Sequence record: SRR31156797_5117
Reading direction: 5' to 3' (one strand)
DNA: 34,317 nt
Part shown: in pieces, positions 4,074 to 28,115 of the stretch
How the letters are laid out: the number at the start of each line of letters is the position of its first letter
Position numbering within the stretch: the first letter of the stretch is position 1
The notes under the pieces: model-generated
Database searches by the model: none
Told to the model about the DNA's origin: nothing
What the model saw: the letters and a program-made list of their open reading frames with translations, nothing else
Made by a program: the position numbers and the translations under genes

Positions 4074-5027
4074 CTAGTTACTAATAAATCCTTCAAGGGT
4101 ATTTTCAAAGGTTTGCATATCTTTATATCGCTTCGCTACAATCTTTACATAGCCACTATCTAAAAAACAGTATTTTGAACAATCTTCAACGATAATATCA
4201 AACTTTGATAGCACCATCGCAAGCTCTTTTCCTGTAATACCATTGAGTTTTACAAGCATACTATTGGTATATGAGTATACAGTTTGATGAAAGATACTAT
4301 ACTCTTTTATGATCTTTTCTAAATAAGCTTTTGATCTTGCATTTGTTGCTTTTGATATCTTGGAAAATGTCACATCTTTTAGCATCTCTTGGATAAAAAG
4401 ATTATCATATGGGGAGATGTTATGCTGGATATTATATTGTTTCAGTCGTGAAATATTTGTTTCATTTGATATTACAAAAGCTGTTTTAATAGCAGGGATG
4501 TTAAAAAAGTATTCAAATGATTTGATGATGTAGAGATTGTGATAGTTTAATATATATTTTGAAACTGATTCAAAAGGGCTAAACTCTAGGTATGATTCAT
4601 CTATAATAATAAAGCAGTTCTTCTCTTGCCACATTTGTATCATAGGTTCAAGATCATAACAACTTCCATCAGGAATACTAGGATTTTGAAAGATCACTAT
4701 TGAATTTGATTTTACATTGTGTCTCATATCGATATATCTATTGATATACTCCACATTGATATCTTTTAAAAAAAGAGTTTCTGTAAAGAGTGTATCAATA
4801 GGTGCATAAATATAGCAGTTTCTAAGTCCTGAACTGTCTATAAGCTTATATAGTGCATTATTTACACCACTATACATCTCTAAAAAGTTTTGATCTATTT
4901 TATAATGGTTTGATACCACATTATAAAGGGTTGAAAAGTTTATAGCTTCATTGACCTTTATACTACTAAGATCAATATTTACATTGGGTGTCAAAAAATT
5001 ATGGTTTGAGGCTAGATCTATTTGCAT
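4074..5027 (-). CDS. Class I/II aminotransferase-fold CobD paralogue lacking the PLP-binding lysine
   Basis: Aligns by eye with the 15812-16828 protein: IDLASNHNF vs IDLSSNINF, NPSIPDG vs NPSTPDG, IIDESYLEF vs LVDESFLEF. However KSMTKFY becomes KSFEYFF. Confidence 0.75.
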   Translation of the reverse strand: MQIDLASNHNFLTPNVNIDLSSIKVNEAINFSTLYNVVSNHYKIDQNFLEMYSGVNNALYKLIDSSGLRNCYIYAPIDTLFTETLFLKDINVEYINRYIDMRHNVKSNSIVIFQNPSIPDGSCYDLEPMIQMWQEKNCFIIIDESYLEFSPFESVSKYILNYHNLYIIKSFEYFFNIPAIKTAFVISNETNISRLKQYNIQHNISPYDNLFIQEMLKDVTFSKISKATNARSKAYLEKIIKEYSIFHQTVYSYTNSMLVKLNGITGKELAMVLSKFDIIVEDCSKYCFLDSGYVKIVAKRYKDMQTFENTLEGFISN

Positions 5028-5059: not shown

Positions 5060-5920
5060 TTATATTAGTGAGAGAAGGAGTAAAATAGTTATAAACAAAA
5101 TATCAAGCCTTTTTTGAAAGGAAAGTGCTTTTAATATATCGTTTTTTTCTATTGTCTGTTTCCCCTCTCCAAAATATGGTTTTGATTTTATTTTACCAAA
5201 ATAAGAAGTGTCTCCACCAAGTTTCACCTCTATAGCTCCCGCCATTGCTGAGATAGGATATCCTGCATTTGGACTTTCATGTAGATGAGCAGACTTTAAA
5301 ATTGCTTTAAAGCTATTTGTACTAAAAAAGAGTAGGGCGATCAATAGTGCGGTGATACGAGAGGGGATATAGTTTGCTACATCATCAAGCTTTGCACTAA
5401 ATTTACCAAAGTTTTGGTACTTGTCATTTTTGTATCCTACCATAGAATCAAGAGTATTGATCGCTTTATAGAAAAATAATCCAATTATCCCAAAAAGAAC
5501 TAGATAAAAAAGTGGCGCAACCACGCCATCACTTAGATTTTCCCCATAAGTTTCTATGGCAGCTTTATTGATATCTGATTCACTTAGATCTTTTGTATCA
5601 CGACTTACAAGATATTGGATATTTTTAGGGTTTTGAAGAATATCTTTTACACTCTCATAAAGCATCTTTGAAGCGATCCCCATAGAAGCGATAATTGCTT
5701 GGAGATACCAAGGTAAAAAACTCAAAGGATAGCTAATAAGAAATACTATAAAAAGAAGTGAAAGAGTAAGAAGTATACCATTTATAAAAGAGTCTTTATA
5801 AAACTTCTTTTCAAACCACGAGATATATTCTCCCATAAATACTACAGGGTGTTTTATATACTTAAATTCTCCAAATATTCTATCTATGATATACGCACCT
5901 AAGGCTATTTCAAAAAACAT
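5060..5920 (-). CDS. cbiB: Adenosylcobinamide-phosphate synthase CbiB
   Basis: Membrane protein with HPVV, LVSRDT, ENLSDGVVAPLFY, YKAINTLDSMVGYK, DDVANYIPSR and SPNAGYP motifs. The ORF track starts at 5935; ATG 5920 is preferred because it follows an extended -10 (TG-A-TATTAT). Confidence 0.93.
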   Translation of the reverse strand: MFFEIALGAYIIDRIFGEFKYIKHPVVFMGEYISWFEKKFYKDSFINGILLTLSLLFIVFLISYPLSFLPWYLQAIIASMGIASKMLYESVKDILQNPKNIQYLVSRDTKDLSESDINKAAIETYGENLSDGVVAPLFYLVLFGIIGLFFYKAINTLDSMVGYKNDKYQNFGKFSAKLDDVANYIPSRITALLIALLFFSTNSFKAILKSAHLHESPNAGYPISAMAGAIEVKLGGDTSYFGKIKSKPYFGEGKQTIEKNDILKALSFQKRLDILFITILLLLSLI

Positions 5921-5949
5921 ATGCAATAATATCATAAGAAGGATTTATT

Positions 5950-10606: not shown

Positions 10607-11818
10607 ATGTCAATATTAACGAAAATAGTATTTTTATTTCTTATAAGTATCTCTTTGATGTTTTATCTCTCTATAAAAACAGATGCTATTACCAGTGAGA
10701 AGATAGAGTTTATTCATAAACAAAAATATATTCAAGCCTCAAAAGAGCTTTTTGAACTCCTTATTAATGCTGATACTATAAAACTCGATAAAACTATAAA
10801 AGCTTTAAATTATGAAATAGTTACAATGAATATTCTTGATAAAAGTGCATATGTTATCTATGAAAATAAAGTCTCTTTTGGAAGTATTAAGATATATAAA
10901 AAAGATGATAGATATTTTTTATATATGAGCTATCTTGATGATGAAGTATTGTATTTCGACAACTCTCAAAATGAGGAGGAAAAACAAAAAAAACTGCTTA
11001 ATTCTCTTATAGTTATTGATATTGTTGTTCTTTTTATTATGCTTTTTATTATATTAAAAATGCTTTTTCCTCTTAAAACACTTTCAAAAGGGATAAAAAA
11101 GTTTGGTAGTGGAGATTATTCGTATAGATTACCAAAGTTATCAACTAATGATGAAATAGCGCAGACAGTAGATAGATTTAATACTATGGCTGAAAACCTT
11201 GAAAGACTTATCGTATCAAGAGCTCAGTTCTTAAGTGATATAAGCCATGAGCTGAGAACTCCTATTTCAAAGTCTAAGCTTGCATTGGAGATGATAGAAA
11301 AGAGTAAATACAAAGAGATACTTAAAAAATCGATCCTTCAAATAGATGAACTGACAAATGAGATACTAGAGCTTGAAAAACTTAATTCAAATAGTCTGCA
11401 ACTGGAGTTCAAAGAGTATAATATAGAAACAGTTTTAGCTCAGGTGTTTTCAAAAATGATTATAGAAGATGATGAGATTGAAGTTGATATACAAGAAAGC
11501 TTTTATTGTACGGCTGATCTTAATTATCTTGCAATAGCTATTAAAAACCTTATAGATAACGGACTCAAATATAAACAAAGCGGAAAAGTAAAAATCGTTA
11601 TAAAAAATAATTCCATAGAGGTTCTTAACAAAGGGGAAAAACTTCAGCATAATCTTGAATTTTATACAAGAACTTTTACCCAAGAGGATAGTTCAAGATC
11701 AAAAAGTGGCTATGGACTAGGACTTAATATTGTGAAAAGAGTTTTAGAATATCACAATTATAAACTTGAATATACTTATCAAAAGTCATTGAATAGTTTT
11801 AAGATACTATTGAGTTAG
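10607..11818 (+). CDS. Membrane sensor histidine kinase with HAMP domain
   Basis: Two TM helices, HAMP (DEIAQTVDRFNTMA), H-box ISHELRTP, N-box NLIDNGLKY, G-box GYGLGL. Confidence 0.95.
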   Translation: MSILTKIVFLFLISISLMFYLSIKTDAITSEKIEFIHKQKYIQASKELFELLINADTIKLDKTIKALNYEIVTMNILDKSAYVIYENKVSFGSIKIYKKDDRYFLYMSYLDDEVLYFDNSQNEEEKQKKLLNSLIVIDIVVLFIMLFIILKMLFPLKTLSKGIKKFGSGDYSYRLPKLSTNDEIAQTVDRFNTMAENLERLIVSRAQFLSDISHELRTPISKSKLALEMIEKSKYKEILKKSILQIDELTNEILELEKLNSNSLQLEFKEYNIETVLAQVFSKMIIEDDEIEVDIQESFYCTADLNYLAIAIKNLIDNGLKYKQSGKVKIVIKNNSIEVLNKGEKLQHNLEFYTRTFTQEDSSRSKSGYGLGLNIVKRVLEYHNYKLEYTYQKSLNSFKILLS

Positions 11819-12433: not shown

Positions 12434-13762
12434 CTATTGGATACTATTTAAGATAGTATCCACATCTAGCCTTTTTTTCATCTCCTCAACAAACTCTTTT
12501 ATATTTTGTTTTTTATAGTTTTCAAACCACTCATCTATAAAAAGCCCATGGGAAAAAGTTCCATAGATATTTTCTGTTTTATAGGTATTTGAGTATTTTT
12601 CACTTATTCCATGATGTATTTCAAAAAGGTGTCCCTCTTTTTTTAAGACTTTTTCTTTTTGAAAAACTATTTCATCATCAATAAACCCAAACCCCTCTTC
12701 AATAGTTGGCTCCAAGACTTCTATACACTTATTATCAATGATCCTTTCAAATAGCATCTGATACCCACCACAGATCCCTACGATATGGTTTTGTTTTTTT
12801 GCTTCTTTTTGTTTGATTTGCTCAAAAAGTCCAGTTTCTTTGAGCCACCTTAGATCTTTGATCACAAGTTTACTTCCAGGTAAGATAACACACTCATACT
12901 GTTCAAGGGACACATTGGTATCTATAAACTCTACACAAGTGTTTGGATCAGCGATCAAAGGCTCAAAATCATTGTAGTTACTCATATAAGGATAAGAGAT
13001 GATAGCTACTTTTCTAGTAGACTTAGAACAATCTTGGGTAAAGTTCTTTAAACTAGCACTATCTTCAAAGCCAAGATTAAAAGGCTTATAAGGGAGTACT
13101 CCAAGCACAGGGATACCAAACTCTTTTTCTATGATCTCTATCCCTTTATCAAATAAAGACAAATCTCCACGAAACTTATTAATAATCACACCGATCACAT
13201 TTTTTTGAAGTTTTTTAGGGAGTAGATTATACACTCCATAGATACTAGCAAATACTCCACCTTTTTCAATATCAGCTACAAGTATGATCTTGGTATTAAA
13301 AGTATCCGCTATATAGATATTGGATAAGTCCTTATCCATAAGATTCAGCTCCACAGGACTTCCAGCTCCTTCACATACTACACAATCATATTGAGAGTCT
13401 AGATAAGTAAAAGCCTCTTTAACTGCAGGCTTAAGCGAATCAAGATCACGATAATACTCCCGCACATCTTTATCTTTTACCACTTGTCCATTGACTATAA
13501 GTGAAGCAGAACTTCCTCGACCTGATTTTAATAAGATAGGGTTTAAGTGATAAGAAGTAGGTACATCTAAAACACTCGCTTGAAAATACTGAGCGATAGC
13601 GATCTCACTTCCATCATCTGCAACGTGTGAATTGTTGGATACGTTTTGTGCTTTAAATGGAACGACAGAGTATCCTAGGTCTTGGAGTATCTTTGCTATG
13701 ACAAAGGTTATTGTTGATTTTCCTGCATCGGAGCTTGTGCCGAAGATTGAGATATTATTCAT
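12434..13762 (-). CDS. cobQ: Cobyric acid synthase CobQ/CbiP
   Basis: GTSSDAGKS, PFKAQN, LNPILLK, EGAGSPVELN, ADIEKGG, NKFRGD; glutaminase triad residues in GICGGYQML and GTFSHGLF. Confidence 0.95.
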   Translation of the reverse strand: MNNISIFGTSSDAGKSTITFVIAKILQDLGYSVVPFKAQNVSNNSHVADDGSEIAIAQYFQASVLDVPTSYHLNPILLKSGRGSSASLIVNGQVVKDKDVREYYRDLDSLKPAVKEAFTYLDSQYDCVVCEGAGSPVELNLMDKDLSNIYIADTFNTKIILVADIEKGGVFASIYGVYNLLPKKLQKNVIGVIINKFRGDLSLFDKGIEIIEKEFGIPVLGVLPYKPFNLGFEDSASLKNFTQDCSKSTRKVAIISYPYMSNYNDFEPLIADPNTCVEFIDTNVSLEQYECVILPGSKLVIKDLRWLKETGLFEQIKQKEAKKQNHIVGICGGYQMLFERIIDNKCIEVLEPTIEEGFGFIDDEIVFQKEKVLKKEGHLFEIHHGISEKYSNTYKTENIYGTFSHGLFIDEWFENYKKQNIKEFVEEMKKRLDVDTILNSIQ

Positions 13763-15047: not shown

Positions 15048-15074
15048 AACTAAATCCAATAAGTATTTTAAATA

Positions 15075-15377
15075 TTATGATACATAGATAAAGTCATCTT
15101 TTGCATCTAGTTTTATAAGAGGATTCATCTTTTTTTCTCGTACAAGATCAACTTTTGTATGAAGATTGCTTTCTAGTTCATTTAGAAACTCAAGATATTT
15201 GTCTAAAGATAACTTGTAAGATGATTCTAATTCATAAAGTATATCTATATCACTATCTTTTTTAGCATCATCTCTAGCATATGATCCAAAAAGAGCTAGT
15301 TTTGAGAGATGATATTTTTGAGAATAGTTTTCTTTATTTTGTGAAAGAAAATTTAAAATATCTTTTTTACTCATCAT
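15075..15377 (-). CDS. Minimal nucleotidyltransferase (MNT/MntA antitoxin family)
   Basis: LFGSYAR-x6-SDIDILYE and KVDLV motifs; own TATAAT (15397-15402) and AAGGAG SD. Confidence 0.88.
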   Translation of the reverse strand: MMSKKDILNFLSQNKENYSQKYHLSKLALFGSYARDDAKKDSDIDILYELESSYKLSLDKYLEFLNELESNLHTKVDLVREKKMNPLIKLDAKDDFIYVS

Positions 15378-15811: not shown

Positions 15812-16828
15812 TTATAGTTGTTTAAGTGCTTTTTCTAATAGTTTAATATCTTCTAAAGATTTTACTGCAATACGTACAAAGCTTTCATCTAAAAAGTCAA
15901 AGTTAGAACAGTCACGTATAAGTATCTTATAGGGTTTTAGCTCCTCTTGAAATTCACTTGCTGTGAGCTCTTGTAGTTTCATTAGAAAAAAGTTTGCAGA
16001 TGATGGGAAAACTGTTTCAAATAAACTACATGATGAGAGTAGGGTAAAAAGTTTTTCTCTATTTAGATCATTTTGTTCTTTTGCTTGTTGTTTAAAAGTA
16101 GTATCTCTTAGTACCTCTTGGATATATAGAGAATCAAACTGTGATATTTTCCATGCAGGCTCTTTTGCTTTTAGTTTTTTGATATTTTCTTCATTTGAGA
16201 TAATAGCTCCTAGACGGATTCCCGCACTACTATAAAACTTGGTCATAGATTTTAATATATAAAGATTTGGATACTCTTCTAGGTATTCTATAGCACTTTT
16301 ACCATCCGTAAACTCTAAAAAAGATTCATCTACTAATACAGTACATCGTAAACTATACCATCTCTTTAAAAGCTTTTCTATATCGTAATACGATCCATCA
16401 GGAGTAGAAGGGTTTACAAAGACAACTAAAGAGTGTGGAGTAGGGCTCTCTTCAAAGTTATCAAATCTATTGATCATATGGAGTTTATATCCAAAGTTTA
16501 TAGCTGCTTTTTTATACTCTAAATAAGCAGGGGAATAGATAGTACAAGTTCTTAATTTCAAAAATTGAAAAAGGGAAAATATCCCACTACTTCCACCATT
16601 AAAAAGCTCCAATTTATCTTCTTTTATATGATAGTTATTTGCTATGACTCTATATAGTTCATCATAATTTGGATAAGAGGAGATATCTAAAGAGTTGAAA
16701 TCTATACTAAGTGTTGGTTTGATAAAGTTAATATTGGAAGAAAGATCAATGATCTCTTCTGTACTACAACGTAACTCTTTTGCAAAGCCTTGTATATCTC
16801 CCCCATGGGCAAACTTTCTTATAGCCAT
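15812..16828 (-). CDS. cobD: L-threonine-O-3-phosphate decarboxylase CobD
   Basis: HGG..IDLSSNIN, NPSTPDG, DESFLEF, KSMTKFYSSAGIRLG (PLP lysine), IRDCSNF, FVRIAVK; adjacent to cobS. Confidence 0.88.
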   Translation of the reverse strand: MAIRKFAHGGDIQGFAKELRCSTEEIIDLSSNINFIKPTLSIDFNSLDISSYPNYDELYRVIANNYHIKEDKLELFNGGSSGIFSLFQFLKLRTCTIYSPAYLEYKKAAINFGYKLHMINRFDNFEESPTPHSLVVFVNPSTPDGSYYDIEKLLKRWYSLRCTVLVDESFLEFTDGKSAIEYLEEYPNLYILKSMTKFYSSAGIRLGAIISNEENIKKLKAKEPAWKISQFDSLYIQEVLRDTTFKQQAKEQNDLNREKLFTLLSSCSLFETVFPSSANFFLMKLQELTASEFQEELKPYKILIRDCSNFDFLDESFVRIAVKSLEDIKLLEKALKQL

Positions 16829-17508
16829 AATAATATCCCTATATTAAGATAGATGAGCTCTTGAAGCTCTATATTAAATCCTAAAGTGTCTCCATTTAAA
16901 AAGCCAAGACGTTTTTTTAAAAGATTTAAAATCAGTTTTGTAAGAAAAGAAAATGGAACCATAGGAAGTCTTAGCCAAATAGGGGTTTTAAAGGCTTCTT
17001 GTAAAGAGAGGATAAAACTGCTTTTGTTATGATATTCGAGTTCCAATGCAAAGATAATAGAAGCTCGACTCAGTATCAAAGCTAAGATAATAGTGATATA
17101 ACATTCATAATAAAGTAAAAACCCAAGAGCAGTAAGCTTTAATAAAATAAAACAAAAAGCCCCAATAGCTCCTAAAGCTCCAACTTGAGGCTCTTTCATT
17201 ATCTCATACACATCTTTACCACTCAAACTTGCATAATACCCATCAATAGTATCAGCCACAGCTTCAAGGTGAATAAAGCCATATAAGCAAAGATAGATGA
17301 TAGAAACTACGATAGCCTTATAAAGAGTTGGCAATGGTAAGATGAGGTATAGTAAAACAGTAATAACGCCTAAAATAATGCCTACGAGAGGAAGTCCAAA
17401 GATCACACCTCTATAAAACTTTTTATTGGCTTTAAACTTTTCAAGCTTTATAGGCAAGATACTAAAATAGGAGATTGAGTAAAGAATACCGTTTATAATA
17501 TGTTTCAT
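16819..17508 (-). CDS. cobS: Cobamide synthase CobS (adenosylcobinamide-GDP ribazoletransferase)
   Basis: Membrane protein with GFIHLEAVADTIDG, IMKEPQVGALG and LNGDTLG. Confidence 0.92.
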   Translation of the reverse strand: MKHIINGILYSISYFSILPIKLEKFKANKKFYRGVIFGLPLVGIILGVITVLLYLILPLPTLYKAIVVSIIYLCLYGFIHLEAVADTIDGYYASLSGKDVYEIMKEPQVGALGAIGAFCFILLKLTALGFLLYYECYITIILALILSRASIIFALELEYHNKSSFILSLQEAFKTPIWLRLPMVPFSFLTKLILNLLKKRLGFLNGDTLGFNIELQELIYLNIGILLWL

Positions 17509-17999
17509 TTTATTTTTACCCCTATACCAAACTTCACTTCATACACTTCATCACACATTTCTGCTAGATATTGCCCTATGATTCCTGTTAGGTCTACAAA
17601 GCGTCGTGTCTCTTTTTCAAAAGGGATGATACCTCCATTGACATCATTAAGTACAAAGACGATATTTGCATTGGTCTTTGCTAGCTTTGCAAGTTGAGAG
17701 AATAGCTCACTATCTTCTAAGTCTATATTATTTAAAAGCCACACAGAGATACAGTCGATGAGGTAAGTATTATCATCTTGTATCACTTTGCTAAGATCTT
17801 TTGTCTCTTCAATGGTGATAAAGCTTGATTCTCTTTGGTTTTGATGGGTATCGATCCGCTGTTGCATCTCTTTATCACCATAAGAGTTATCATAGGTTGC
17901 TATATAGTAAGGCTTATGAGATGATAGCTCTAAGGCTTTTTGCTCGGCTAAAAGGCTTTTGCCGCTTTTTTGACCGCCGAAGTAGAGTATCTTATGCAT
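17505..17999 (-). CDS. cobU: Bifunctional adenosylcobinamide kinase/guanylyltransferase CobU
   Basis: GGQKSGKS, YIAT, EMQQRIDTHQNQR, LIDCISVW, RRFVDLTG. Confidence 0.93.
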   Translation of the reverse strand: MHKILYFGGQKSGKSLLAEQKALELSSHKPYYIATYDNSYGDKEMQQRIDTHQNQRESSFITIEETKDLSKVIQDDNTYLIDCISVWLLNNIDLEDSELFSQLAKLAKTNANIVFVLNDVNGGIIPFEKETRRFVDLTGIIGQYLAEMCDEVYEVKFGIGVKIK

Positions 18000-18000: not shown

Positions 18001-18990
18001 CTATCGTCCTTTTTTTAACATTTTAGCTGTTTGATCTATTTGATTAATAAAATCTTTTTCAACACGAGATAGATCATTTTTTGTTTTTTCTTTATATATT
18101 AGATATTCTTCATTTGCTTTTTGTATCGCTTTTTCATGACTAATTTTCCCTGAATGGCTCAGTATATCTTTCCCAGTCATTTTTAAAAAATCATCAAGTC
18201 TTTCTATCCAATCTTTCATATACATTGGGGTTTGGCTCATCGCTTGAAGTTCTGCTATTTCAATATATGCCGTTACTATACGATTAAGGATATTTAACTC
18301 TTCTTCATTAAGATAGTTTTTAGCGATACTAGCTTCTTGTTTTGTCGGCTTTAGACCTTTAAAATTAGTAAGTCCCATATTTATTTTAGTTGCGTCTACT
18401 CTTTCATATATGATTTCAGCTGCCGTGTTACCATGAGTTGCCCAGTGCATTTTATTTTGTACTGTTTGAAAAAACTGTATTGAAAGTTCGGCTTTAGGGT
18501 CATAATCAATGCTTGTAGCATAAATATCAAGAACCTTTCTCCAAAACACTTTTTCACTGCTTCGTATATCTCTTATACGAGCTAAAAGCTCCTCAAAATA
18601 GTTTCCACCACCTGCATTTTTAAGAAGCTCATCGTTCATAGTAAAACCTTTTACTATATACTCCTTGAGTCTTGCAGTTGCCCATTGGCGGAACTTTGTA
18701 CCTTGAAGGGATTTGACTCTATAACCTACAGATATGATTACATCGAGATTATAAAAATTTGTAGGCTTGGTAGAAAAATCGGAATTTCCGATTTTTCTCA
18801 TACTACTATCTTTTTCTAGCTCTCCTTCTTTGAAAATATTTAATATATGTTCATTGATAGTTGAGCGACTTTTTTGAAAAAGTTCTCCCATCTGATCAAT
18901 TGTAAGCCAAACAGTTTCATTTTCTAGTCTAGTTTGGATTTTTGTTTGACCGTCTTCTGTTTGGTAAATTAAGATTTGTGAATTGGGCAT
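18001..18990 (-). CDS. RhuM-family (virulence-associated, putative DNA-binding) protein
   Basis: ETVWLT..MGELF, YNLDVIISVGYRVKS, FRQWAT..LKEYIVKGF, RIRDIRSSEK, QNKMHWA..TAAE, AKNYL. Confidence 0.88.
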   Translation of the reverse strand: MPNSQILIYQTEDGQTKIQTRLENETVWLTIDQMGELFQKSRSTINEHILNIFKEGELEKDSSMRKIGNSDFSTKPTNFYNLDVIISVGYRVKSLQGTKFRQWATARLKEYIVKGFTMNDELLKNAGGGNYFEELLARIRDIRSSEKVFWRKVLDIYATSIDYDPKAELSIQFFQTVQNKMHWATHGNTAAEIIYERVDATKINMGLTNFKGLKPTKQEASIAKNYLNEEELNILNRIVTAYIEIAELQAMSQTPMYMKDWIERLDDFLKMTGKDILSHSGKISHEKAIQKANEEYLIYKEKTKNDLSRVEKDFINQIDQTAKMLKKGR

Positions 18991-18996: not shown

Positions 18997-20055
18997 TTAT
19001 CCTAAAAAATTTTCAACTCGTCGTGTAATTTGTTCTTTTGAAAGCCCATTTAATGCTCCATAGACAAGTGCTCCACCAGCTCCAACTCCCTCTTTAGCTT
19101 CCCCCTCATCATAAAGCTTAAGGGCAGGATGCTTACTTAAAGAGAAGTCAAAGTTGGAATAATAGCTATTGATAGGAAAAGAAAGGAACTCTAGTAACCC
19201 TTTGATATCACTATTTTTATCTTCTACAACCCACTTAGTAGTACAAAGAGCAAGGTTAGAAGTCTCGATTTTTCCATCCATCACTTCTAGCATTTTATTG
19301 ACAATAAGAAGCACACAAGCCATTTGTGTACCACCTGCTAGGATAGTTGGGATCTTATTATTAAGTCCTAGGATCAACCCTGCATTAAATATAAGCATAT
19401 TATCACTTACATGTGAGAGTATAGAAAATATATCATCCTCTTTGTTCACATTGTTTAAAGCTTTTTCAATAGTCTGTTCTCTTATATCATTTGGAACCTC
19501 TTTAAAACTACTGCTAAACATCTCTTTTACATTATATCCAAGAGCTAGAGCCGTTGCACATGCTGTTGTAGTACCACTAGGAACTGATTCACTTAGGATG
19601 ATATAATCATCTTCACATTCAAAGTTTTGTCCAAATTCTACCGCTTGTTCAAAAAGCTCTATGGCATTGATATTGGCATCAATATTGATACTTCCACTTG
19701 GGAGTATATTAAAACTATGTTTTTTGACATAGTGGATATTTGGTTGCACTTGTAATCCAAGGTCTAATAACTCTATATTGTTAAAAGGTTTTAAAGTATG
19801 TACTGCACGGGTAAGTAGAGCAGGGGTTGGGACTCCTTTTGGTGTCTCAGCGATATTTTCCAAGCTCCGTACTTCTCCTGTGCAAACAAACTCTGCATCA
19901 AGTGTAGGAGTAAGGTGGATAAGCCCTGGGATTCCCGCTTGGGTGATCCCTACGATATTAGCAGTTGCCGTATTTGACATACTTAGTAAAAATGAAGCAG
20001 ATTTTCCTCGTAAAAATTCTATAAAATCGACTGTTCCAGTAAGCGTTTTTATCAT
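18997..20055 (-). CDS. cobT: Nicotinate-mononucleotide:base phosphoribosyltransferase CobT (TIGR00303-like, archaeal/cyanobacterial type)
   Basis: GITQAG, TPTLDAEF, PTPALLT, ESVPSGTTTA, LAGGTQM, YDEGEAKEGVGAGG. Confidence 0.85.
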   Translation of the reverse strand: MIKTLTGTVDFIEFLRGKSASFLLSMSNTATANIVGITQAGIPGLIHLTPTLDAEFVCTGEVRSLENIAETPKGVPTPALLTRAVHTLKPFNNIELLDLGLQVQPNIHYVKKHSFNILPSGSINIDANINAIELFEQAVEFGQNFECEDDYIILSESVPSGTTTACATALALGYNVKEMFSSSFKEVPNDIREQTIEKALNNVNKEDDIFSILSHVSDNMLIFNAGLILGLNNKIPTILAGGTQMACVLLIVNKMLEVMDGKIETSNLALCTTKWVVEDKNSDIKGLLEFLSFPINSYYSNFDFSLSKHPALKLYDEGEAKEGVGAGGALVYGALNGLSKEQITRRVENFLG

Positions 20056-20822
20056 AGTTTTTTGATCCTTTTTAAAAGTGAATTATAGTCTCTATTATCT
20101 AAATATCTAGTTGTAGCATAATAAAGTAGTGCATATTTCATATAGATTTTAAATTTTTTCAAACCTATCTTTGAATGATAGCTTCTTAGTAATACTTTAA
20201 CCTCTTTATCACTTTTACACCAGTCTATTGCTATAACAGCAAGGTCAAAATGAAAATCCCCATTACAAGCCTCGCTAAAATCGATAATAGCAGATATTTT
20301 GTTATGGTAAAATAGGGAGTTGTCACTAAACAAATCTCCATGAATGATCCCATCATCATTAAGTTTAATATGTAAATTATTATAGATCTTTAAAAGTTTA
20401 ACATTTTTAGTTTTTAATATCAGTTTTTTAAGATATTTTTTTGAAAAGATATTTTTATTGGTGGAGGTTTTATTTTGTGTTCTTTGATGAAATCTCCTTA
20501 GAAATTTCCCAATCTGTTTTATATGTTTAGAGTTGATCTTTTCTAAGCTTTTCCCTTTAGATCTCTTGTAGATAAGAGCATATCTCCCTTTTATTTTTAT
20601 AGGAGTTTGTATAAGTTTAGAGACCTTTAAGTCTTTACAAAGTGTGAGAAGCTTTTGCTCCTCTTTGATATTTGCTAAAGTGCTGTTTTCAAAGAGTTTT
20701 AAAACATATTTATCATCTAAGATATAAACAGTATCACTTACCCCATCTTTTGTTTTTTGGAGTTTTTTGACTTTAAAATAAGGCTTGATATCCTTTTTTG
20801 TAAGCTTTGTTTTAATCCCCAA
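20052..20822 (-). CDS. APH/type II homoserine kinase (ThrB-like) family phosphotransferase
   Basis: Likely TTG start at 20822 (MGIKTKL) after GAGG. GVSDTVY, YVLKLFE, IHGDLFSDN and IIDF kinase motifs; stop overlaps the cobT start (ATGA). Confidence 0.85.
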   Translation of the reverse strand: MGIKTKLTKKDIKPYFKVKKLQKTKDGVSDTVYILDDKYVLKLFENSTLANIKEEQKLLTLCKDLKVSKLIQTPIKIKGRYALIYKRSKGKSLEKINSKHIKQIGKFLRRFHQRTQNKTSTNKNIFSKKYLKKLILKTKNVKLLKIYNNLHIKLNDDGIIHGDLFSDNSLFYHNKISAIIDFSEACNGDFHFDLAVIAIDWCKSDKEVKVLLRSYHSKIGLKKFKIYMKYALLYYATTRYLDNRDYNSLLKRIKKL

Positions 20823-22917
20823 GATTAGCCTCATCCTTTTGTATAAATAGCTGTTCATAGAGGTTTAAATAAGATTTTAGCTGTTTTATATCCTCTTTTT
20901 GCAATCCATCTTCACACCAATCTTTTATGTTCTTAGGAAAGCTTTGTATCAATGGCTCCATTATCTCATCAAATTGTTTTTGCACGATCTTTTCATGTTC
21001 TAGTAAAAGCTTTATATGCGCTATAATAGTGGCACTTTGTACCCCTCTAATATTTGCTATATCTTCAATCGTTTTCCCATCCTCTACTAGCTCTAAAGTA
21101 TCATGGTAGGTTTTAGTGAGTTTTTTCTTTTGTTGTGGTTTAAACTGCTGTGTTAGCTTTAAAAACTGCTCTCCGTACTTCTGCCATTTTGCTTCACCAA
21201 CTCCATTGATAGCTAAAAACTCCTCTTTGGTTTGGGGAAGCTTATCAGAGAGTTCCACTAGTACCTTGTCACTAAAGATAATATAAGGTGCTACTTGTTC
21301 TTCTTGTGCGAGCTTCGTTCGTAAAGCTCTAAACTCTTCAAAGAATTGTGAATATTCTTTAGAACTTGTAGGCTCTTTTTCTTCTTTGTGTACCACACCG
21401 ATCTTATCAATATCGATATCGATTGTATGTTGTCCCTTCATGATCTCTAAGCCATAAGTTGTAAGCTTTATAGCTCTATGATCCCCTAGAGTTAAAGCCT
21501 CTATATCAAAAAGCCTATCAGCTATGGCATCCCATTCATTCTTACTTTTATCTTCACCTATCCCATAAACTGAAAGCTCTTCGTGTCCAAACTGATAGAT
21601 TTTTTTATTTTTAGAACCTCTTAGGATATCTATTAGGTGGTTTTGTCCAAAGGATTGATTTACTCTCATAACAGTTGATAAAAACTTTCTTGCTTCTGTA
21701 GTGATATCTACAGTTTCAACTTCCCCTTTGGTACAATTATCACATTTAGTTCCACAAGGCTCTATACGGTCATCAAAATATGAGGCGATACTTTGGTGCC
21801 TGCAAGTTGAGTTATTGGAAAATAGGTACATTGCATGAAGTTTTTGAGCAAGTATCTGTTTGTATTCAGGATTTTGAATATCATCCATCATAGCAAGTCG
21901 GCTTATCTCATCTGCTTTTGTATATAAAAGTAAGGTCTCACTCTCTAAGCCATCACGTCCCGCACGACCGATCTCTTGGTAGTAGTTTTCTAAAGTTTTT
22001 GGCATAGAAGTATGCACTACAAAGCGGATATTGCTTTTATCTATCCCCATCCCAAAAGCGATCGTTGCTACGACGATATTGACCTCATCGTTTAAAAACT
22101 CTTTATACACATTATGGCGAATCTCATTATTTAACCCTGCATGATACGCTTTTGCTTTAAATCCATGGCTTTGTAAATATTTGGCAACAGATTCGGTTTC
22201 TTTTCGTGTAAACGTATAGACAATCCCCGTTTTATCTTTTTTATCTTTTAAAAATTCAATCAATTGAGCCTGACCATTTCCAACTCTTTTTTGCGTTTTG
22301 ATAGTAAGGTTATCCCTTTTTGTTTGTCCTCGTAATACTAGAGGATCATTTAAAAGTAGGGTGCTTATGATGTTTTCTTGCACTTTAAGCGTTGCAGTTG
22401 CTGTAAATGCTACTACGGGTGTAGTTGGAAAGTTTTGTTTTAAAAGTGCAAGCTTTTGATAATCGGCTCGAAACTCATGCCCCCATTCACTCACACAGTG
22501 AGCTTCATCAATTACAAAAAAAGATATCTTGATCGAGGATAAAAACTCCATAAACCCATAAGCACTAAATCGCTCAGGTGCTACATATAAAAGCTTTATA
22601 TCTCCATTTCTCGCATCTTCAAAGACCTGTGCCACCTCATCATTATTTTGAGAGGAGTTGATCATAGAAGCTTTGATATTATTTGCTCTTAAAGCTACCA
22701 CCTGATCTTGCATAAGTGCAATTAGTGGAGAAATGACTATCGTTAATCCCTCCATCATCAAAGCAGGAAGTTGATAACAAAGGGACTTTCCCGCTCCCGT
22801 TGGGATAATAGTCACAAGATCACGACCACTTAAGATAGTATCGACCGCTTCTTCTTGAAAAGCTCTAAAAGAGTCGTGTCCAAAAACAGTTTTTAGGATT
22901 TCGTGTTTTTGATTCAT
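20812..22917 (-). CDS. recQ: ATP-dependent DNA helicase RecQ with HRDC and a C-terminal HTH extension
   Basis: FGHDSFR..Q, PTGAGKS, DEAHCVSEWGHEFR, TATA, YYQEIGRAGRDG, Zn cysteines (CRHQ, CGTKCDNC), HRDC (APYIIFSDKVL). Confidence 0.96.
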   Translation of the reverse strand: MNQKHEILKTVFGHDSFRAFQEEAVDTILSGRDLVTIIPTGAGKSLCYQLPALMMEGLTIVISPLIALMQDQVVALRANNIKASMINSSQNNDEVAQVFEDARNGDIKLLYVAPERFSAYGFMEFLSSIKISFFVIDEAHCVSEWGHEFRADYQKLALLKQNFPTTPVVAFTATATLKVQENIISTLLLNDPLVLRGQTKRDNLTIKTQKRVGNGQAQLIEFLKDKKDKTGIVYTFTRKETESVAKYLQSHGFKAKAYHAGLNNEIRHNVYKEFLNDEVNIVVATIAFGMGIDKSNIRFVVHTSMPKTLENYYQEIGRAGRDGLESETLLLYTKADEISRLAMMDDIQNPEYKQILAQKLHAMYLFSNNSTCRHQSIASYFDDRIEPCGTKCDNCTKGEVETVDITTEARKFLSTVMRVNQSFGQNHLIDILRGSKNKKIYQFGHEELSVYGIGEDKSKNEWDAIADRLFDIEALTLGDHRAIKLTTYGLEIMKGQHTIDIDIDKIGVVHKEEKEPTSSKEYSQFFEEFRALRTKLAQEEQVAPYIIFSDKVLVELSDKLPQTKEEFLAINGVGEAKWQKYGEQFLKLTQQFKPQQKKKLTKTYHDTLELVEDGKTIEDIANIRGVQSATIIAHIKLLLEHEKIVQKQFDEIMEPLIQSFPKNIKDWCEDGLQKEDIKQLKSYLNLYEQLFIQKDEANLGD

Positions 22918-23027
22918 ATTATTTTATTCCCTTATTTGGTGCTTCTATTATTGATTATCTGATTTTTTGGATAGTTTAACTTAAAATTTTATTTCTTTTT
23001 AAATATATTGCAATATGTCATATTTTA

Positions 23028-23453
23028 CTATTCACTTTTATCTATCTCTTGTAAAAACTGCTCACTCGTCATGATCTCTACACCACACTCATAAAACCCA
23101 CCATCATTACTTAAAAATATATCACAACTATTCTCTTTTGCACAAAGACATTGTAAAACATCTTCTAAGTCAAGGTTTTTTTCTAAAGATATTTGTATGG
23201 AGTCGCTTGTGACCTTAGTTCCAAAAGAGGATATAGTCCATATATTTTGAATATTTTGAAAGAGTTCTAAAACTTGTTGTTTATTTTTGTGGATATAAAA
23301 AATCGTGCTTAGCATATCTTCACTTATTACGATTTCTATCTCATACATTGCTATAAGTCTCCATATAGCAATGGAGTTTTTACTATGAGGTCTTGTGGGG
23401 TCTAAAAAGTCAAGTACTATATTGGTATCTAGATATATTTTATTCCATACCAC
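23028..23453 (-). CDS. PIN-domain (VapC-like) toxin
   Basis: IYLDTNIVLD, DLEDVLQ and IFLSND acidic PIN motifs; start overlaps the upstream gene. Confidence 0.88.
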   Translation of the reverse strand: MVWNKIYLDTNIVLDFLDPTRPHSKNSIAIWRLIAMYEIEIVISEDMLSTIFYIHKNKQQVLELFQNIQNIWTISSFGTKVTSDSIQISLEKNLDLEDVLQCLCAKENSCDIFLSNDGGFYECGVEIMTSEQFLQEIDKSE

Positions 23454-23742
23454 ATTTGGCCTTTGCTACTTCCTCTTTTAAAGCTTTTCCTTCCAATCCT
23501 TTAAATCTATTTTCCATCTCAAACTTACCCGCAAATTGCTCAATAATATCTAAATGCTCTTGGACTCTTCTTTGTTTTTCCTCTTCTAAGTGTTTTTTTA
23601 TAGATTCGGCATATTTTTCACTTACATAGATCCCTTTAGGTTTATGAGTCTTTTTATCTTCAATCTCAAGATAATCATATTCATCGATTAGTTTGGTATT
23701 TCTAGCAAGTTCTCTTAGTCCTATTTTCATTTTTCTTGTCAT
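23440..23742 (-). CDS. Putative antitoxin (Phd/YefM-like N-terminus)
   Basis: 100 aa, charged, N-terminus KIGLRELARN; upstream of and overlapping the PIN gene; AGGAG SD. Confidence 0.7.
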   Translation of the reverse strand: MTRKMKIGLRELARNTKLIDEYDYLEIEDKKTHKPKGIYVSEKYAESIKKHLEEEKQRRVQEHLDIIEQFAGKFEMENRFKGLEGKALKEEVAKAKCGME

Positions 23743-23769
23743 AGTTTACTCCTATATTGTCTTTTGTAG

Positions 23770-23798
23770 ATTATACGATATTAGAAATTTATTGTCAA
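23770..23798 (-). promoter_or_regulatory. Perfect consensus sigma70 promoter of the toxin-antitoxin operon
   Basis: Minus strand reads TTGACA (23798-23793), 17 nt, TATAAT (23775-23770). Confidence 0.85.
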
Positions 23799-23804
23799 AC
23801 TAAA

Positions 23805-24758
23805 TTATTTCCTTCTTTGAATAATGATATAAATAAAAAAAGGCCCACCGATAAATGAAGTCACAACTCCAATAGGAACTTCACTTATTGTTCCAAGGTT
23901 TCTAGCTATGAGATCACAAAGAACTAAAAACACTCCTCCATAAAAAAACACAGGCCAAATAAGCTGATCGCTACTTTGTTTATAGATCATCTTTACAAGG
24001 TGAGGGATAATAAGTCCTATAAATCCAATAGGTCCTACGATACTGACACAAACTCCTACAGCTAAAGATACGGAGATCAAAAGTATAAGATTGATCTTTT
24101 TTATCTCTATCCCTTTTAAAAAGGCATTTTCATATGAGGTAAGTAGGAGTTTAAATTCTGATTTGTATCTTAGGATAAATAGGAGTAAAAGGATAGCTGA
24201 TATACTCATAATATAGACATTATTAAACCCTACGATATTCAGACTTCCCATGGTAAATCGCATAATGGTATAGCTTTGTTGAAAGTCACTGATAAAATAA
24301 AGCACCATTAAAAATGCAGAATAGAAAAAAGATAGAGCAATACCTATCAGAAGTAGTGAGTTTGTTTGAGTCCCTTTGAGTTTACTTGAGAGTAAAAAAA
24401 GGATAATGATCGTTAAAAAAGCTCCTAAAAAACTAAATACATAAGTAAGAAAATAAAGGCTAAGAGGTAAAAAGATGATAGCAACAGCTGCTCCAAGGGT
24501 CGCTCCACTTGCAACCCCTAGGGTAAATGGAGTCGTAAGAGCATTTCTAAATACAGTTTGAAAGATAAGTCCACCAAGGGCTAAGATAGCTCCACTAAAA
24601 AAGGCTATGATGGTTCTTGGGAATCGTAAGTCCCAAAAAAGCATATGGTGAGAATGTTCTGTATTGAAAATATTTGATATATCAATTGATATCTGACCAA
24701 AAAATGGTGAAATAGCTATAATGATCAAAGATAAAAAAAATATAAAATACCGCATCAA
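23805..24758 (-). CDS. btuC: FecCD/BtuC-family ABC permease (cobamide uptake)
   Basis: LRFPRTI, QTVFRNAL..PFTLGVASGA, GPIGFIGLIIPH, VPIGVVTSFIGGPFF; substrate inferred from the cob context. Confidence 0.85.
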   Translation of the reverse strand: MMRYFIFFLSLIIIAISPFFGQISIDISNIFNTEHSHHMLFWDLRFPRTIIAFFSGAILALGGLIFQTVFRNALTTPFTLGVASGATLGAAVAIIFLPLSLYFLTYVFSFLGAFLTIIILFLLSSKLKGTQTNSLLLIGIALSFFYSAFLMVLYFISDFQQSYTIMRFTMGSLNIVGFNNVYIMSISAILLLLFILRYKSEFKLLLTSYENAFLKGIEIKKINLILLISVSLAVGVCVSIVGPIGFIGLIIPHLVKMIYKQSSDQLIWPVFFYGGVFLVLCDLIARNLGTISEVPIGVVTSFIGGPFFIYIIIQRRK

Positions 24759-25453
24759 TAGTTCACCATATAGTATCCATCTATTTGTTTGATAGAGTTT
24801 CCAAAGAATTTTTGTAAATTATTTGGTTCAAAAAACTCTTTAGAACTTCCATCAAATGATACCGTTCCATGGTCTATATTGATGATACGATATCCAAGTT
24901 TATAGGCAAGATTTAGATCGTGAGTGATCACGATATTAAATCTTTTTGTATGGTTTTGTAAGACCTTATATATATTGATCTTTTTATCACTATCAAGATT
25001 TGCTGTAGGTTCATCAAAGATCATATAGATACTATTTTGTAAAAGGGCTGAAGCAAAAAGGAGTAGCTGAGATTCTCCACTACTTAATTGTTTACAGCTT
25101 TTATTTGCTAGATGTTGTATATCTAAAAGTTTCATCACTTTTTCTAATTGATCTTCCTCTATTCCATTAAGAATAGATAGATACAAGTACTCTTTAACAG
25201 AGATATACTCATCAAAAACTTCTAGTTTTGAAGGGATATAGTTTAAAAACTCAGCTCTTTTTTTTGAACTGAGTTTATTAAATGGCGTATCATCTATAAA
25301 AATAGCGTCATTTTCATAGAGTCCTACAATAGCTTTTGCTAAAGTGGTCTTTCCCGCTCCATTGGCTCCAAGGATGGTGATATTTTCATTCTCACACTCA
25401 AAAGAGATATCTTTTAAATACTCTGTTTGGAGCTTATCTATTTTGAGCTTCAA
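24755..25453 (-). CDS. btuD: ABC ATP-binding subunit (BtuD-like)
   Basis: Likely TTG start at 25453 after GAGG; GANGAGKT, LSSGE, FDEPTANLD, ITHDLN. Confidence 0.85.
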   Translation of the reverse strand: MKLKIDKLQTEYLKDISFECENENITILGANGAGKTTLAKAIVGLYENDAIFIDDTPFNKLSSKKRAEFLNYIPSKLEVFDEYISVKEYLYLSILNGIEEDQLEKVMKLLDIQHLANKSCKQLSSGESQLLLFASALLQNSIYMIFDEPTANLDSDKKINIYKVLQNHTKRFNIVITHDLNLAYKLGYRIINIDHGTVSFDGSSKEFFEPNNLQKFFGNSIKQIDGYYMVNY

Positions 25454-26261
25454 GTAAAAATCCTCTAAAATCATCGATAAAGTGTTTGAGTCTATGGCTT
25501 GGAATCCCTGCATATTCATTTGGTTCTACAAAGATGGAGTTGGTTTTGGCTGCATTGATAGGGATATTTTGCCATGGTTTTATGAGTATCTCTTTTGTTA
25601 AGTTTTTATCTTTCATAAATGGACTAATTAAGATCACAATATCAGGATTGAGATGGATGATATTTTCTAGATTTAATACAGGTTGCCCTTTTCTTTTACT
25701 TTGCAGTGCATTTGTATTACCACTAAGGTTAATAATATCATCATAATAAAGGTTTTGTCCTGCCACATATATCTGTTTTGAAAGATCAAGGTTATGTCCA
25801 ATAGCTATCAATATCTTTTTATCTTTTATGATCCCTTTTAAGTTTTCTAACGAAGTATCGATAGAGGAGATGATCTGTGCTGCTTTTTGCTTTTTTTCTA
25901 CGATCTCGCCAATGGTTTTAATAGCATTTTTAATAGAGTCTAGTTTATCTATAGTGATCACTTTTGTCTCTATTCCAAAATGGTTTAATTGTTTTGAGAG
26001 TTCTATACTACTAGTTTGCATGATTACCATATCTGGTTTTAGTGAAAGTATCTTTTCAAGGTTAGGGGAGAAGTATCCCCCAACTTTTTGTTTCTTTTTT
26101 GCTTCTTCTGGATAGGTACAATAGGTAGTATTTCCTACTATTTTATCTCCACTTTCTAGTGCAAATATGATCTCATTGATCGCTGGGCTTAGAGCTATAA
26201 TACGCTCATATCCAAAGAGTTGTAATGAGAGAAAAGATAGTAATAGGAGTTTTTTAATCAT
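25434..26261 (-). CDS. btuF: Periplasmic substrate-binding protein (BtuF-like)
   Basis: Signal peptide; RIIALSPAINEIIFAL, YCTYPEEA, PNLEKILSLKPD. Confidence 0.85.
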   Translation of the reverse strand: MIKKLLLLSFLSLQLFGYERIIALSPAINEIIFALESGDKIVGNTTYCTYPEEAKKKQKVGGYFSPNLEKILSLKPDMVIMQTSSIELSKQLNHFGIETKVITIDKLDSIKNAIKTIGEIVEKKQKAAQIISSIDTSLENLKGIIKDKKILIAIGHNLDLSKQIYVAGQNLYYDDIINLSGNTNALQSKRKGQPVLNLENIIHLNPDIVILISPFMKDKNLTKEILIKPWQNIPINAAKTNSIFVEPNEYAGIPSHRLKHFIDDFRGFLLEAQNR

Positions 26262-28108
26262 TAGAAACTATACTTTATTCCAGCATAATATGCCCTTGGA
26301 CTTGTGGCATATCCATCAACGGTTTGGTAATATTTATCTGTAAGATTTTCTATTTTTCCAAAAAGTTTTATATCTTTTGTAAGATCATAGTTAAGGTTTA
26401 GATGTGCAATTGTATATTTTCCTGTTTGCTCCCCTTGTTTATTGGCACTATCATATCGTGTACCAATGTATTCACCATTTAGTCCAATGTGAAGTTTAGA
26501 GATTCCATAGTAATCAACTCCAAATTTTAGAGTTTGTTCAGGACGTCTTGCAAGGTATTTCCCATCTTCATCTTTTGCACTTAGTTTCGTATAATTCAGT
26601 GTAAAAAGTGTATTTTCAACTACTTCTTTAGAGTATTCTATCTCTATCCCTTTAAAAGTTGATTTCCCATCAAGGTTTTTATATATACCAATAGTAGCTC
26701 CCATATATCCATCAGGATCATACCAGTCAATAAGATCTTTTACCTTTTGATAAAAATAAGTGATCTTAAGGTCTTTATATCCTACGCTGATATCAGCACT
26801 ATAGCTATTTTCTGGATTAAGTTCAGTATTTGGGGCACCCCAAGGGTTAAGCTCTTGGACTATATTTGGAACATTATAGGCAGTTCCTATATTAGAAGAG
26901 AGATAAAGCTCTTTTAAAAAGTTATGTTTTACTCCAAGTTTTCCAGTTAGTTTATTATCAAAGTTATCATAATTATCGTATCTTAAACTTTGAGTAAGTA
27001 CTGTAGTATCAAATTTATTAGAGTTAGTTACATAAAGATAATAGCTTTTATTCTCTTTTGTTCCAGAACTATTTGAAACAGTTGAATAGTCTGCATCATC
27101 TTTTGTGGCTCCAAATCCAAAAAGTGCAAAGCTGTTATCCATATATTTATAGTTGTCATTTAGTTCTAGATTATCACTTTCACCATTGAACTCTTTTACT
27201 CCATAGGTTGTTCCTATCTCTTCTCTTGCAAAGATACTTTTATCGTATTTTGCTTTTAATGTATGTTTATCAAGTGTTTGAGTATAGTATAATGAATAGA
27301 AAGAATCATCTATATCACTTTTCATATTCTCATCATCAGGGCTTGCATAGCTGTCATACTCTTTTTTGGCATCTATTTTTATATATTGAACTCCTACACT
27401 TGCAGAATCATTTATAAAGTAGTTTCCATCAAGATTAAAAGTTGTATTCTCATAGCTATCATCTTCATAGTTATCTATATCATCACCTCTTGGGGCTTGG
27501 GTAGTAAAACTATCACTTGTTATCCTTGATCCACTAAGTTTTAGATCAAACTCTTCTTGTTTATGTGAAAGAGTGGCTCCATATTTTTTAGTGTTAAAAC
27601 TTCCAAGTTCTAGATTTAGAGATCCATGGGTTCCATGTTTTGGTTTTTTTGTGATGATATTGATAACTCCAGAAGCAGCATCAGCTCCCCAGATACCACT
27701 TTGTGAACCTTTGATAACTTCTATCTTTTCTATTTCACTATTCATAAGATGAGCAATAGTTGCCCCACTTGTATTTGATGGATTTTGATATCTGATCCCA
27801 TCAATGAGTACAAGAACTCTATTATTTCCACTTCCTCTTAAAAGTATGGAAGTTGTAGATCCAAGTCCTCCGTTTGAAGTAAAGTTTATTCCGCCAGCTA
27901 GATTTAAAGCTTCTGCTACGGTTTTAATATTTTTTTCCTCTAGTTCTGTATTTGAAATAATTGAAGTATTACTTGTCACATCCTCTATTGATTGTTCTGA
28001 TTTTGTTGCACTTGAGATTGTCAGTGTTCCTAGATTAAAATTATTTTGTGCAAAAGCACATGTTGTAAGTAAAAAAGCACCAGCAATGCTTAATGGTATT
28101 TTGTTCAT
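26261..28108 (-). CDS. btuB: TonB-dependent outer-membrane receptor (BtuB-like)
   Basis: Signal peptide, TonB-box-like TLTISS, plug motifs LRG..VLVLIDG and IEKIEVIKG..SGIWGADA.SGVINIITK, C-terminal Phe; 615 aa; heads the btuFDC-cob cluster. Substrate is inferred. Confidence 0.82.
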   Translation of the reverse strand: MNKIPLSIAGAFLLTTCAFAQNNFNLGTLTISSATKSEQSIEDVTSNTSIISNTELEEKNIKTVAEALNLAGGINFTSNGGLGSTTSILLRGSGNNRVLVLIDGIRYQNPSNTSGATIAHLMNSEIEKIEVIKGSQSGIWGADAASGVINIITKKPKHGTHGSLNLELGSFNTKKYGATLSHKQEEFDLKLSGSRITSDSFTTQAPRGDDIDNYEDDSYENTTFNLDGNYFINDSASVGVQYIKIDAKKEYDSYASPDDENMKSDIDDSFYSLYYTQTLDKHTLKAKYDKSIFAREEIGTTYGVKEFNGESDNLELNDNYKYMDNSFALFGFGATKDDADYSTVSNSSGTKENKSYYLYVTNSNKFDTTVLTQSLRYDNYDNFDNKLTGKLGVKHNFLKELYLSSNIGTAYNVPNIVQELNPWGAPNTELNPENSYSADISVGYKDLKITYFYQKVKDLIDWYDPDGYMGATIGIYKNLDGKSTFKGIEIEYSKEVVENTLFTLNYTKLSAKDEDGKYLARRPEQTLKFGVDYYGISKLHIGLNGEYIGTRYDSANKQGEQTGKYTIAHLNLNYDLTKDIKLFGKIENLTDKYYQTVDGYATSPRAYYAGIKYSF

Positions 28109-28115
28109 TTGATTA

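Follow-up and report, generated by a model that had tools for sequence, protein, structure and literature searches.

The source of the L-threonine phosphate from which the aminopropanol linker of cobamides is made is an acknowledged gap in cobamide biosynthesis. In this report, we describe a gene for a small-molecule kinase in a stretch of DNA of 34,317 nucleotides (sequence record SRR31156797_5117; the whole stretch is hereafter called the window) and put it forward as the best candidate for the phospho-threonine supplier of the B12 linker in sulfur-oxidising Campylobacterota, a proposal that draws on sequence, structure prediction and gene context. The gene occupies positions 20052..20822 on the minus strand and encodes a predicted APH-fold kinase of 256 amino acids (aa) when read from a TTG start. 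On balance, it is likely to be an L-threonine kinase that feeds CobD, acting as a non-orthologous substitute for PduX and BluE; we infer this activity, with its substrate and product, from linkage to and co-occurrence with cobD.

If this assignment is right, the protein would phosphorylate L-threonine with ATP (the reaction of Enzyme Commission number EC 2.7.1.177) on an APH / protein-kinase-like fold, and CobD would decarboxylate the resulting L-threonine-O-3-phosphate to (R)-1-amino-2-propanol phosphate. CbiB would then join the aminopropanol phosphate to adenosylcobyric acid, and CobU, CobT and CobS would complete the nucleotide loop. The adenosylcobyric acid would derive from corrinoid precursors taken up and processed by way of BtuBFDC and CobQ; some relatives would make it through the de novo cbi pathway.

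The predicted protein matches the Pfam family APH (PF01636) far beyond chance, at 82 bits against a cut-off of 23.2 (expect value (E) 7e-23; residues 37-228 of a 268-aa form), and its place in that family is borne out by the profile score, the catalytic apparatus and a predicted bilobal protein-kinase-like fold. The open reading frame (ORF) is intact, as a preliminary description of this DNA had stated, and both motifs named there, HGDLFSDN and IIDF, were located in the translation. Across 24 aligned homologues and 29 members of the clade described below, the catalytic residues are invariant (256-aa numbering): Lys42 in beta-3, His161-Gly-Asp163, Asn168 and the Mg-binding Asp181. Because of this invariance, the protein looks catalytically active and is predicted to be a working kinase. 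An AlphaFold2 model computed from a 24-sequence alignment reached a predicted local distance difference test score (pLDDT) of 92.6 and a predicted template-modelling score (pTM) of 0.88. In a Foldseek search with this model, the top PDB match was 2PPQ, the type II homoserine kinase of Agrobacterium tumefaciens (template-modelling score 0.79), followed by aminoglycoside and choline kinases; the best 50 of the 448 structural matches at E <= 0.001 are APH, choline-kinase or homoserine-kinase II chains. A sequence-profile search of the PDB gave 2PPQ as the sole strong match (E 8e-17), with all others no better than 9e-5.

The minus-strand ORF that stops at 20052 could begin at ATG 20858, which gives the 268-aa form, or at TTG 20822. 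We regard the TTG as the likelier start, because database homologues are mostly 255-260 aa long, 17 of 23 aligned homologues, with N-termini of the MG[IV]KT type, start at the TTG position, the TTG has a GAGG 6 nt before it, and the first residues of the long form appear disordered (residues 1-12 alone have a pLDDT below 50 in AlphaFold2). With this start, the beginning of the gene overlaps the recQ stop by 11 nt. At the other end, the overlap with cobT claimed earlier can be read directly from the sequence, where the kinase TGA (20054-20052) and the cobT ATG (20055-20053) share an ATGA.

The highest NCBIfam matches of the kinase are two type II homoserine-kinase equivalogs, and it misses the cut-offs of both, at about one third of the required score (NF003558, 96.3 against 271; TIGR00938, 59.8 against 255.9). 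A tree of 83 kinase sequences (quick search; fragments L010, L020 and L048 and duplicate L094 left out) split into a 39-row Campylobacterota clade that includes the window and a 44-row clade that is nearly all Pseudomonadota, with a Shimodaira-Hasegawa-like approximate likelihood ratio test (SH-aLRT) value of 99. All five Pseudomonadota sister-clade proteins tested exceed both homoserine-kinase cut-offs, whereas all five other proteins tested from the Campylobacterota clade miss both, as the window protein does; because of this contrast, we regard the sister clade as the true ThrB_alt family and the Campylobacterota clade as something else. Judged on sequence, then, the window kinase is not a type II homoserine kinase. 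Members of its clade are about 60 aa shorter through the loss of loops and of some of the C-terminus, and the beta-3 position holds Lys in 100% of 29 clade sequences versus Thr in 90% of 31 homoserine kinases. In the bona fide type II homoserine kinases (L027-L080), this Thr stands in place of the Lys that binds ATP in strand beta-3 and is universal elsewhere in the APH / protein-kinase fold; we know of no ligand-bound structure of a type II homoserine kinase. Source records annotate the homologues as 'homoserine kinase type II', 'phosphotransferase' or 'hypothetical protein', and in the Protein Atlas homologue P0027 belongs to 'phosphotransferase family protein' clusters that are commonest in Campylobacterota and have homoserine-kinase-like structural neighbours.

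The data lean slightly towards a model whereby L-threonine kinase activity arose independently yet again in the Campylobacterota clade, which branched from the lineage of type II homoserine kinases and switched between isomers, from the gamma- to the beta-hydroxyl. In this model, the kinase lineage would be the sister of type II homoserine kinase, having exchanged L-homoserine (gamma-OH) for the isomeric L-threonine (beta-OH) as its substrate. Since threonine is homoserine with the hydroxyl at the beta position, the change from the sister family would be chemically small.

The separate GHMP thrB on which the preliminary description had set weight was found, above the curated cut-off, in all 34 kinase-bearing genomes among the relatives (a smaller check gave four of five), and the kinase is not needed as a homoserine kinase, at least in these relatives. 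A search of 40 genomes with cobamide genes gave exactly two GHMP-domain genes in 35 and three in five; the two common ones are probably IspE and ThrB, whose expected sizes they have. With two such genes in most genomes, a PduX-like extra GHMP kinase is therefore not generally present.

Linkage to cobamide genes is conserved in the clade. We scanned one genome per species, which gave 80 related loci, and used the window proteins as tblastn queries to place the cob and btu genes of these loci. In relatives, the link to cob genes holds: cobamide genes adjoin the kinase in 34 of the 39 clade rows. The kinase lies within 500 bp of cobD in 21 rows, cobD lies within 5 kb in nine more (the window included), and the kinase stands beside btu or cobT genes in two; in a further two, which appeared unlinked in the first screen, it directly follows cbiM-cbiK-methylase in a de novo cbi operon. 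In the sister clade, cobD was nearby in just one of 44 rows. The most telling arrangement is that of L011, with the order cbiG, methylase, cbiA, nitroreductase, kinase, cobD, cbiB, in which the three linker steps are consecutive. The linkage is kept across gene orders (co-directional and adjacent, divergent, or separated by cobT-cobU) and spans Arcobacteraceae, Sulfurimonadaceae and Sulfurovaceae, although the proteins are only about 30% identical. L002-L008, L021 and L022 have a btuBFDC block ahead of the kinase, and the kinase directly precedes cobT in the window, in L003-L006 and in L022. The earlier view of the kinase as coupled to cobT thus stands for the window itself, with its ATGA overlap, while the commonest immediate partner in relatives is cobD.

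Three further arrangements were seen among the loci. The sole cobD-linked case of the sister clade, L058 (Methyloglobulus; 6589-10876), was considered as a second linked lineage, outside the phylum, and is read as chance: it is a bona fide type II homoserine kinase gene 1 kb downstream of cobD-cobQ, its product passes the homoserine-kinase cut-offs (327 bits versus 271), and it is a lone case in 44 rows. In one kinase subclade (L086, L087 and L096, from genomes G328, G277 and G356), a cbiM-cbiK-methylase operon ends with the kinase and lies far from cobD, which is about 1 Mb distant in two complete chromosomes; L086 has btuBFDC directly after. In several relatives, a nitroreductase-family gene, which could be BluB-like or corrinoid-reductase-like, lies between cbiA and the kinase (L003, 6284-6886; L011, 9387-10010), and the scanned ORFs of the window showed no counterpart.

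The distribution of the kinase follows that of cobD. In one sample of 401 Campylobacterota genomes, used for the kinase, cobD and cobS searches alike (kinase, E <= 1e-10; window-type CobD, E <= 1e-40), the kinase was found in 34 genomes and window-type cobD in 39; 33 genomes had both, one (G320) the kinase alone, six window-type cobD alone and 361 neither. The co-occurrence with cob genes envisaged earlier thus holds for 33 of the 34 kinase genomes; Fisher's test gives p = 5e-41, a value that ignores shared ancestry and is descriptive only. Where both genes were present (33 genomes), they were at most 3 kb apart in 26 (at most 50 bp in seven of these) and 12 kb apart in one, and they lay far from each other or on different contigs in six. 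Among the 48 genomes with cobS, the kinase was present in 33 of the 38 that have window-type cobD and in none of the 10 that lack it; the kinase therefore goes with cobD rather than with assembly of the nucleotide loop at large.

Three of these 10 genomes (G075, G321 and G340) carry a longer CobD-like gene near cobS, and the G075 protein matches PDB entry 6OUX, a 'threonine phosphate decarboxylase-like enzyme', at 879 bits. A Sulfurospirillum CobD-like gene reportedly governs norcobamide synthesis, according to a 2016 paper. Enzymes of the 6OUX type presumably use serine phosphate. Phosphoserine is supplied by serine biosynthesis, and a cluster that draws on it would therefore need no dedicated kinase. 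All three 6OUX-type clusters lack the kinase. In G075, the neighbours cbiB, cobU, cbiP, cobT, cobS, cobC and cbiK follow the order that table A5 of PMC7755780 gives for the published Sulfurospirillum norcobamide cluster.

The minus-strand gene order in the window is btuB, btuF, btuD, btuC, a PIN toxin-antitoxin pair, recQ, kinase, cobT, a RhuM-family gene, cobU, cobS, cobD, a cupin gene, a nucleotidyltransferase gene, a KAP NTPase gene and cobQ. The features around the kinase are as follows.

26261-28108, minus strand: btuB, corrinoid uptake (Pfam TonB receptor)
25434-26261, minus strand: btuF, corrinoid uptake (Pfam Peripla_BP_2)
24755-25519, minus strand: btuD (Pfam ABC_tran; BtuD among the top NCBIfam matches, below cut-off)
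23805-24758, minus strand: btuC (Pfam FecCD; BtuC among the top NCBIfam matches, below cut-off)
23028-23742, minus strand: PIN toxin and small upstream partner
20812-22917, minus strand: recQ-family helicase with a C-terminal HTH_40 domain
20052..20822, minus strand: APH-fold small-molecule kinase, candidate L-threonine kinase
18997..20055, minus strand: cobT, archaeal type, nicotinate mononucleotide (NaMN)-dependent phosphoribosyltransferase (TIGR00303, 254 bits against 240; NF003372, 369 against 306)
18001-18990, minus strand: RhuM-family gene
17505..17999, minus strand: cobU, adenosylcobinamide kinase / guanylyltransferase (PF02283, E 1e-39)
16819..17508, minus strand: cobS, cobamide synthase (PF02654, E 1e-32)
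15812..16828, minus strand: cobD, L-threonine-O-3-phosphate decarboxylase type (top NCBIfam match TIGR01140, 229.6 bits, under the cut-off of 290.55)
15075-15377, minus strand: nucleotidyltransferase
13755-15059, minus strand: KAP P-loop NTPase
12434..13762, minus strand: cobQ/cbiP, cobyric acid synthase (NF001989, 443 bits against 273; TIGR00313, 395 against 310)
5060..5935, minus strand: cbiB, adenosylcobinamide-phosphate synthase, which attaches aminopropanol phosphate (PF03186, E 2e-88; TIGR00380, 237 bits against 166)
4074..5027, minus strand: second, divergent CobD-like gene of aminotransferase fold, directly downstream of cbiB (TIGR01140, 79.8 bits; 31-34% identity to the CobD of relatives)
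30122-30673: HobA, placement marker

The predicted HobA places the organism in Campylobacterota. The window CobD matches Salmonella CobD (1LC5) over its full length at 120.7 bits and 6OUX more weakly, at 72.1 bits. The btuBFDC block (23805..28108) lies upstream of the kinase in the same orientation. Uptake genes, CobQ, CbiB, CobD and CobU/T/S together are what a cell needs to take up a linkerless corrinoid and complete it to a cobamide; such completion needs aminopropanol phosphate and, therefore, threonine phosphate. The preliminary description had placed the kinase in a cluster with cobD and cbiB, which is accurate for cobD; cbiB is in the window but not contiguous, being 14 kb from the kinase, beyond an unrelated cytochrome and two-component block. 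Its further statement that the window holds no PduX- or BluE-like gene agrees with a Pfam scan, which found no GHMP-kinase domain in 37 distinct window ORFs.

The PIN pair and the recQ, RhuM-family, KAP and nucleotidyltransferase genes are of mobile/defence type and interrupt the cluster. Neither recQ nor rhuM was found in the 80 related loci; a KAP gene stands between cobD and cobQ in L089 and L090 also (49-51% identity). Downstream of the second CobD-like gene, positions 1626-4033 (minus strand) encode a 468-aa protein that belongs to no Pfam or NCBIfam family and an AAA ATPase of MoxR-like type (AAA_3); both genes may share an operon with cbiB. A promoter and terminator scan gave sites no more numerous than in shuffled sequence.

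Several observations weigh against the proposed role. By the window queries, five of the 39 clade rows have no cobamide neighbour, although two of the five lie close to the end of a contig or on one of 2.5 kb, too short to tell. Six of the 39 genomes with window-type cobD lack the kinase, and three of the kinase-less genomes (G402, G384 and G272) have the clusters and the CobD (60-63% identity) closest to those of the window, and two of them share the KAP gene at its place between cobD and cobQ; it follows that the kinase is dispensable there or that threonine phosphate has another source. Conversely, G320 bears the kinase without window-type cobD. All genes of the cluster co-occur, so co-occurrence alone cannot single out the threonine step; the sole discriminating contrast is that of cobS without cobD, which comprises 10 genomes whose kinship is not accounted for. 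No fusion forms of the kinase, including kinase-CobD, were found at E <= 1e-10 among proteins of 470-2000 aa, which is weak evidence. Finally, no cobalamin riboswitch links the kinase to B12 control: Rfam matches were absent from the window at gathering score, from 20700-28600 at E <= 1, and from seven related loci (L011, L013, L015, L086, L087, L095 and L096). Even the 240 bp upstream of btuB gave no such riboswitch in the search result, despite the B12 uptake and assembly operons, and regulation in this lineage may be by other means or by a divergent RNA.

In the kinase-less loci L088 and L089, a 200-aa ORF that overlaps the end of cobD (L088, 10928-11530, plus strand; L089, 9341-9949, minus strand; 82% identical to each other) was considered as an alternative kinase. 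It was dropped, as it has no PDB sequence match and occurs only in these two loci, being absent from the window and all others; Pfam gave no match for the L088 copy and a weak transglutaminase match for the L089 copy.

It is possible, if rather unlikely, that the protein is a cobamide-pathway kinase with a different substrate. It might phosphorylate L-serine, to give a linker of ethanolamine phosphate; it might act on free (R)-1-amino-2-propanol salvaged when corrinoids are broken down; or it might modify an intermediate of the lower ligand, for example alpha-ribazole. The substrate cannot be read from gene linkage; in the window, in L003-L006 and in L022 the gene directly precedes cobT and not cobD, the APH-fold matches span aminoglycoside, choline, capreomycin and macrolide kinases, and the six cobD genomes without the kinase fit this explanation as well. 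Against it, the kinase tracks cobD rather than cobS, with its absence from all 10 cobS genomes that lack window-type cobD, and cobD is its commonest neighbour. As to the individual substrates, an aminopropanol kinase would make CobD unnecessary, and no amino-alcohol kinase was among the 55 PDB sequence matches listed up to E 10; a serine kinase would supply the phosphoserine that serine biosynthesis already provides, and the three 6OUX-type clusters have no such kinase; and with cobT present, salvage of ribazole is not needed. In addition, the nearest relative by sequence and fold, 2PPQ, is an amino-acid kinase.

Improbable, in our view, is an unrelated small-molecule kinase (for example, one that modifies antibiotics) or a passenger gene whose link to the cluster is a historical accident. 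The mobile/defence-type interruptions of the window cluster (toxin-antitoxin pair, recQ, rhuM and KAP NTPase) and weak matches to APH(3') and APH(2'') models would suit such an origin. The related loci, however, have the kinase, and neither of the interrupting genes recQ and rhuM was found in them; the linkage of the kinase holds across three families, at about 30% identity and in several gene orders; the aminoglycoside 3'-phosphotransferase model NF033068 scores 40.2 bits against a cut-off of 205. Least probable of all, and barely credible, is an extra homoserine kinase of type II that takes part in threonine biosynthesis and lies near cob genes by coincidence: its top NCBIfam matches, the annotation of homologues and the closest structure all suggest it, but it scores about a third of curated cut-offs that true members pass, falls in a separate clade, shares every carrier genome with a GHMP thrB, and occurs in only 34 of 401 genomes, nearly all with cobD, a distribution unlike that of a gene for threonine biosynthesis.

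The candidate L-threonine kinase can be set beside several known systems. Type II homoserine kinase, ThrB_alt (TIGR00938 / NF003558; 2PPQ), acts on an isomer of threonine and has in common with the window kinase the APH / protein-kinase-like fold, the HGDLFxDN catalytic loop, the Mg-binding Asp and the conserved His112, Tyr215 and Arg239; it is longer (about 310-322 aa, against 256) and serves as the homoserine kinase of the cell, unlike the window kinase clade, which is found with cobD. The APH(2'') and APH(3') aminoglycoside O-phosphotransferases have the same fold and catalytic motifs (Foldseek rank 2 onward; sequence E 9e-5), but their sequence similarity is weak, and the window kinase has its context in cobamide assembly and not in resistance.

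PduX, the L-threonine kinase of Salmonella enterica, belongs to the GHMP family, and the reaction and role we propose are the same, namely L-threonine phosphate for CobD and the aminopropanol linker, as given in the relevant passages of PMC6249242, where the activity of PduX and BluE is stated to have been demonstrated in E. coli. BluE, the L-threonine kinase of Rhodobacter, would likewise share the proposed reaction, and, like the window kinase, it is lineage-restricted and encoded with cobamide genes. The folds are different, in agreement with the preliminary description: the passages of PMC10906522 on these enzymes describe GHMP motifs I-III in PduX, and GHMP and L-Thr-kinase motifs that BluE shares with it, whereas the window kinase is APH-type and has no GHMP family, PF00288 included, among its Pfam or NCBIfam matches. 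CbiU (Dehre_1608) of Dehalobacter restrictus is also a candidate non-orthologous L-threonine kinase, put forward in part of PMC4285132 from its position in a cobamide operon and its likeness to homoserine kinase; it is of the phosphoglycerate-mutase-like / archaeal homoserine kinase type (TIGR02535) and not of the APH fold. Our literature searches found no paper that describes an APH-fold L-threonine kinase; the supplementary tables of PMC6461909, possibly with linker-gene calls per genome, were outside that search. The proposed enzyme would bring together a known fold and a known reaction in a combination that is not yet described or proven.

According to passages of PMC6461909, pduX is absent from most experimentally verified cobamide producers, and because its annotations are missing there, the L-threonine phosphate step was left out of genome-based predictions of B12 producers. 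If the kinase is what we propose, this 'missing pduX' linker gap would be closed for a whole phylum of sulfur-oxidising bacteria, and a defined, readily recognised kinase family would sharpen B12-producer predictions for the vent, seep, mat and sediment communities that are rich in Campylobacterota. The absence of the kinase from norcobamide-type clusters would then mark off threonine-phosphate from serine-phosphate cobD genes, and its presence or absence may help to separate the two types of CobD. Metabolic engineers would gain a small alternative to PduX and BluE, and homoserine kinase II and the kinase clade would form a natural pair for studying how the phosphorylated hydroxyl changes in amino-acid kinases.

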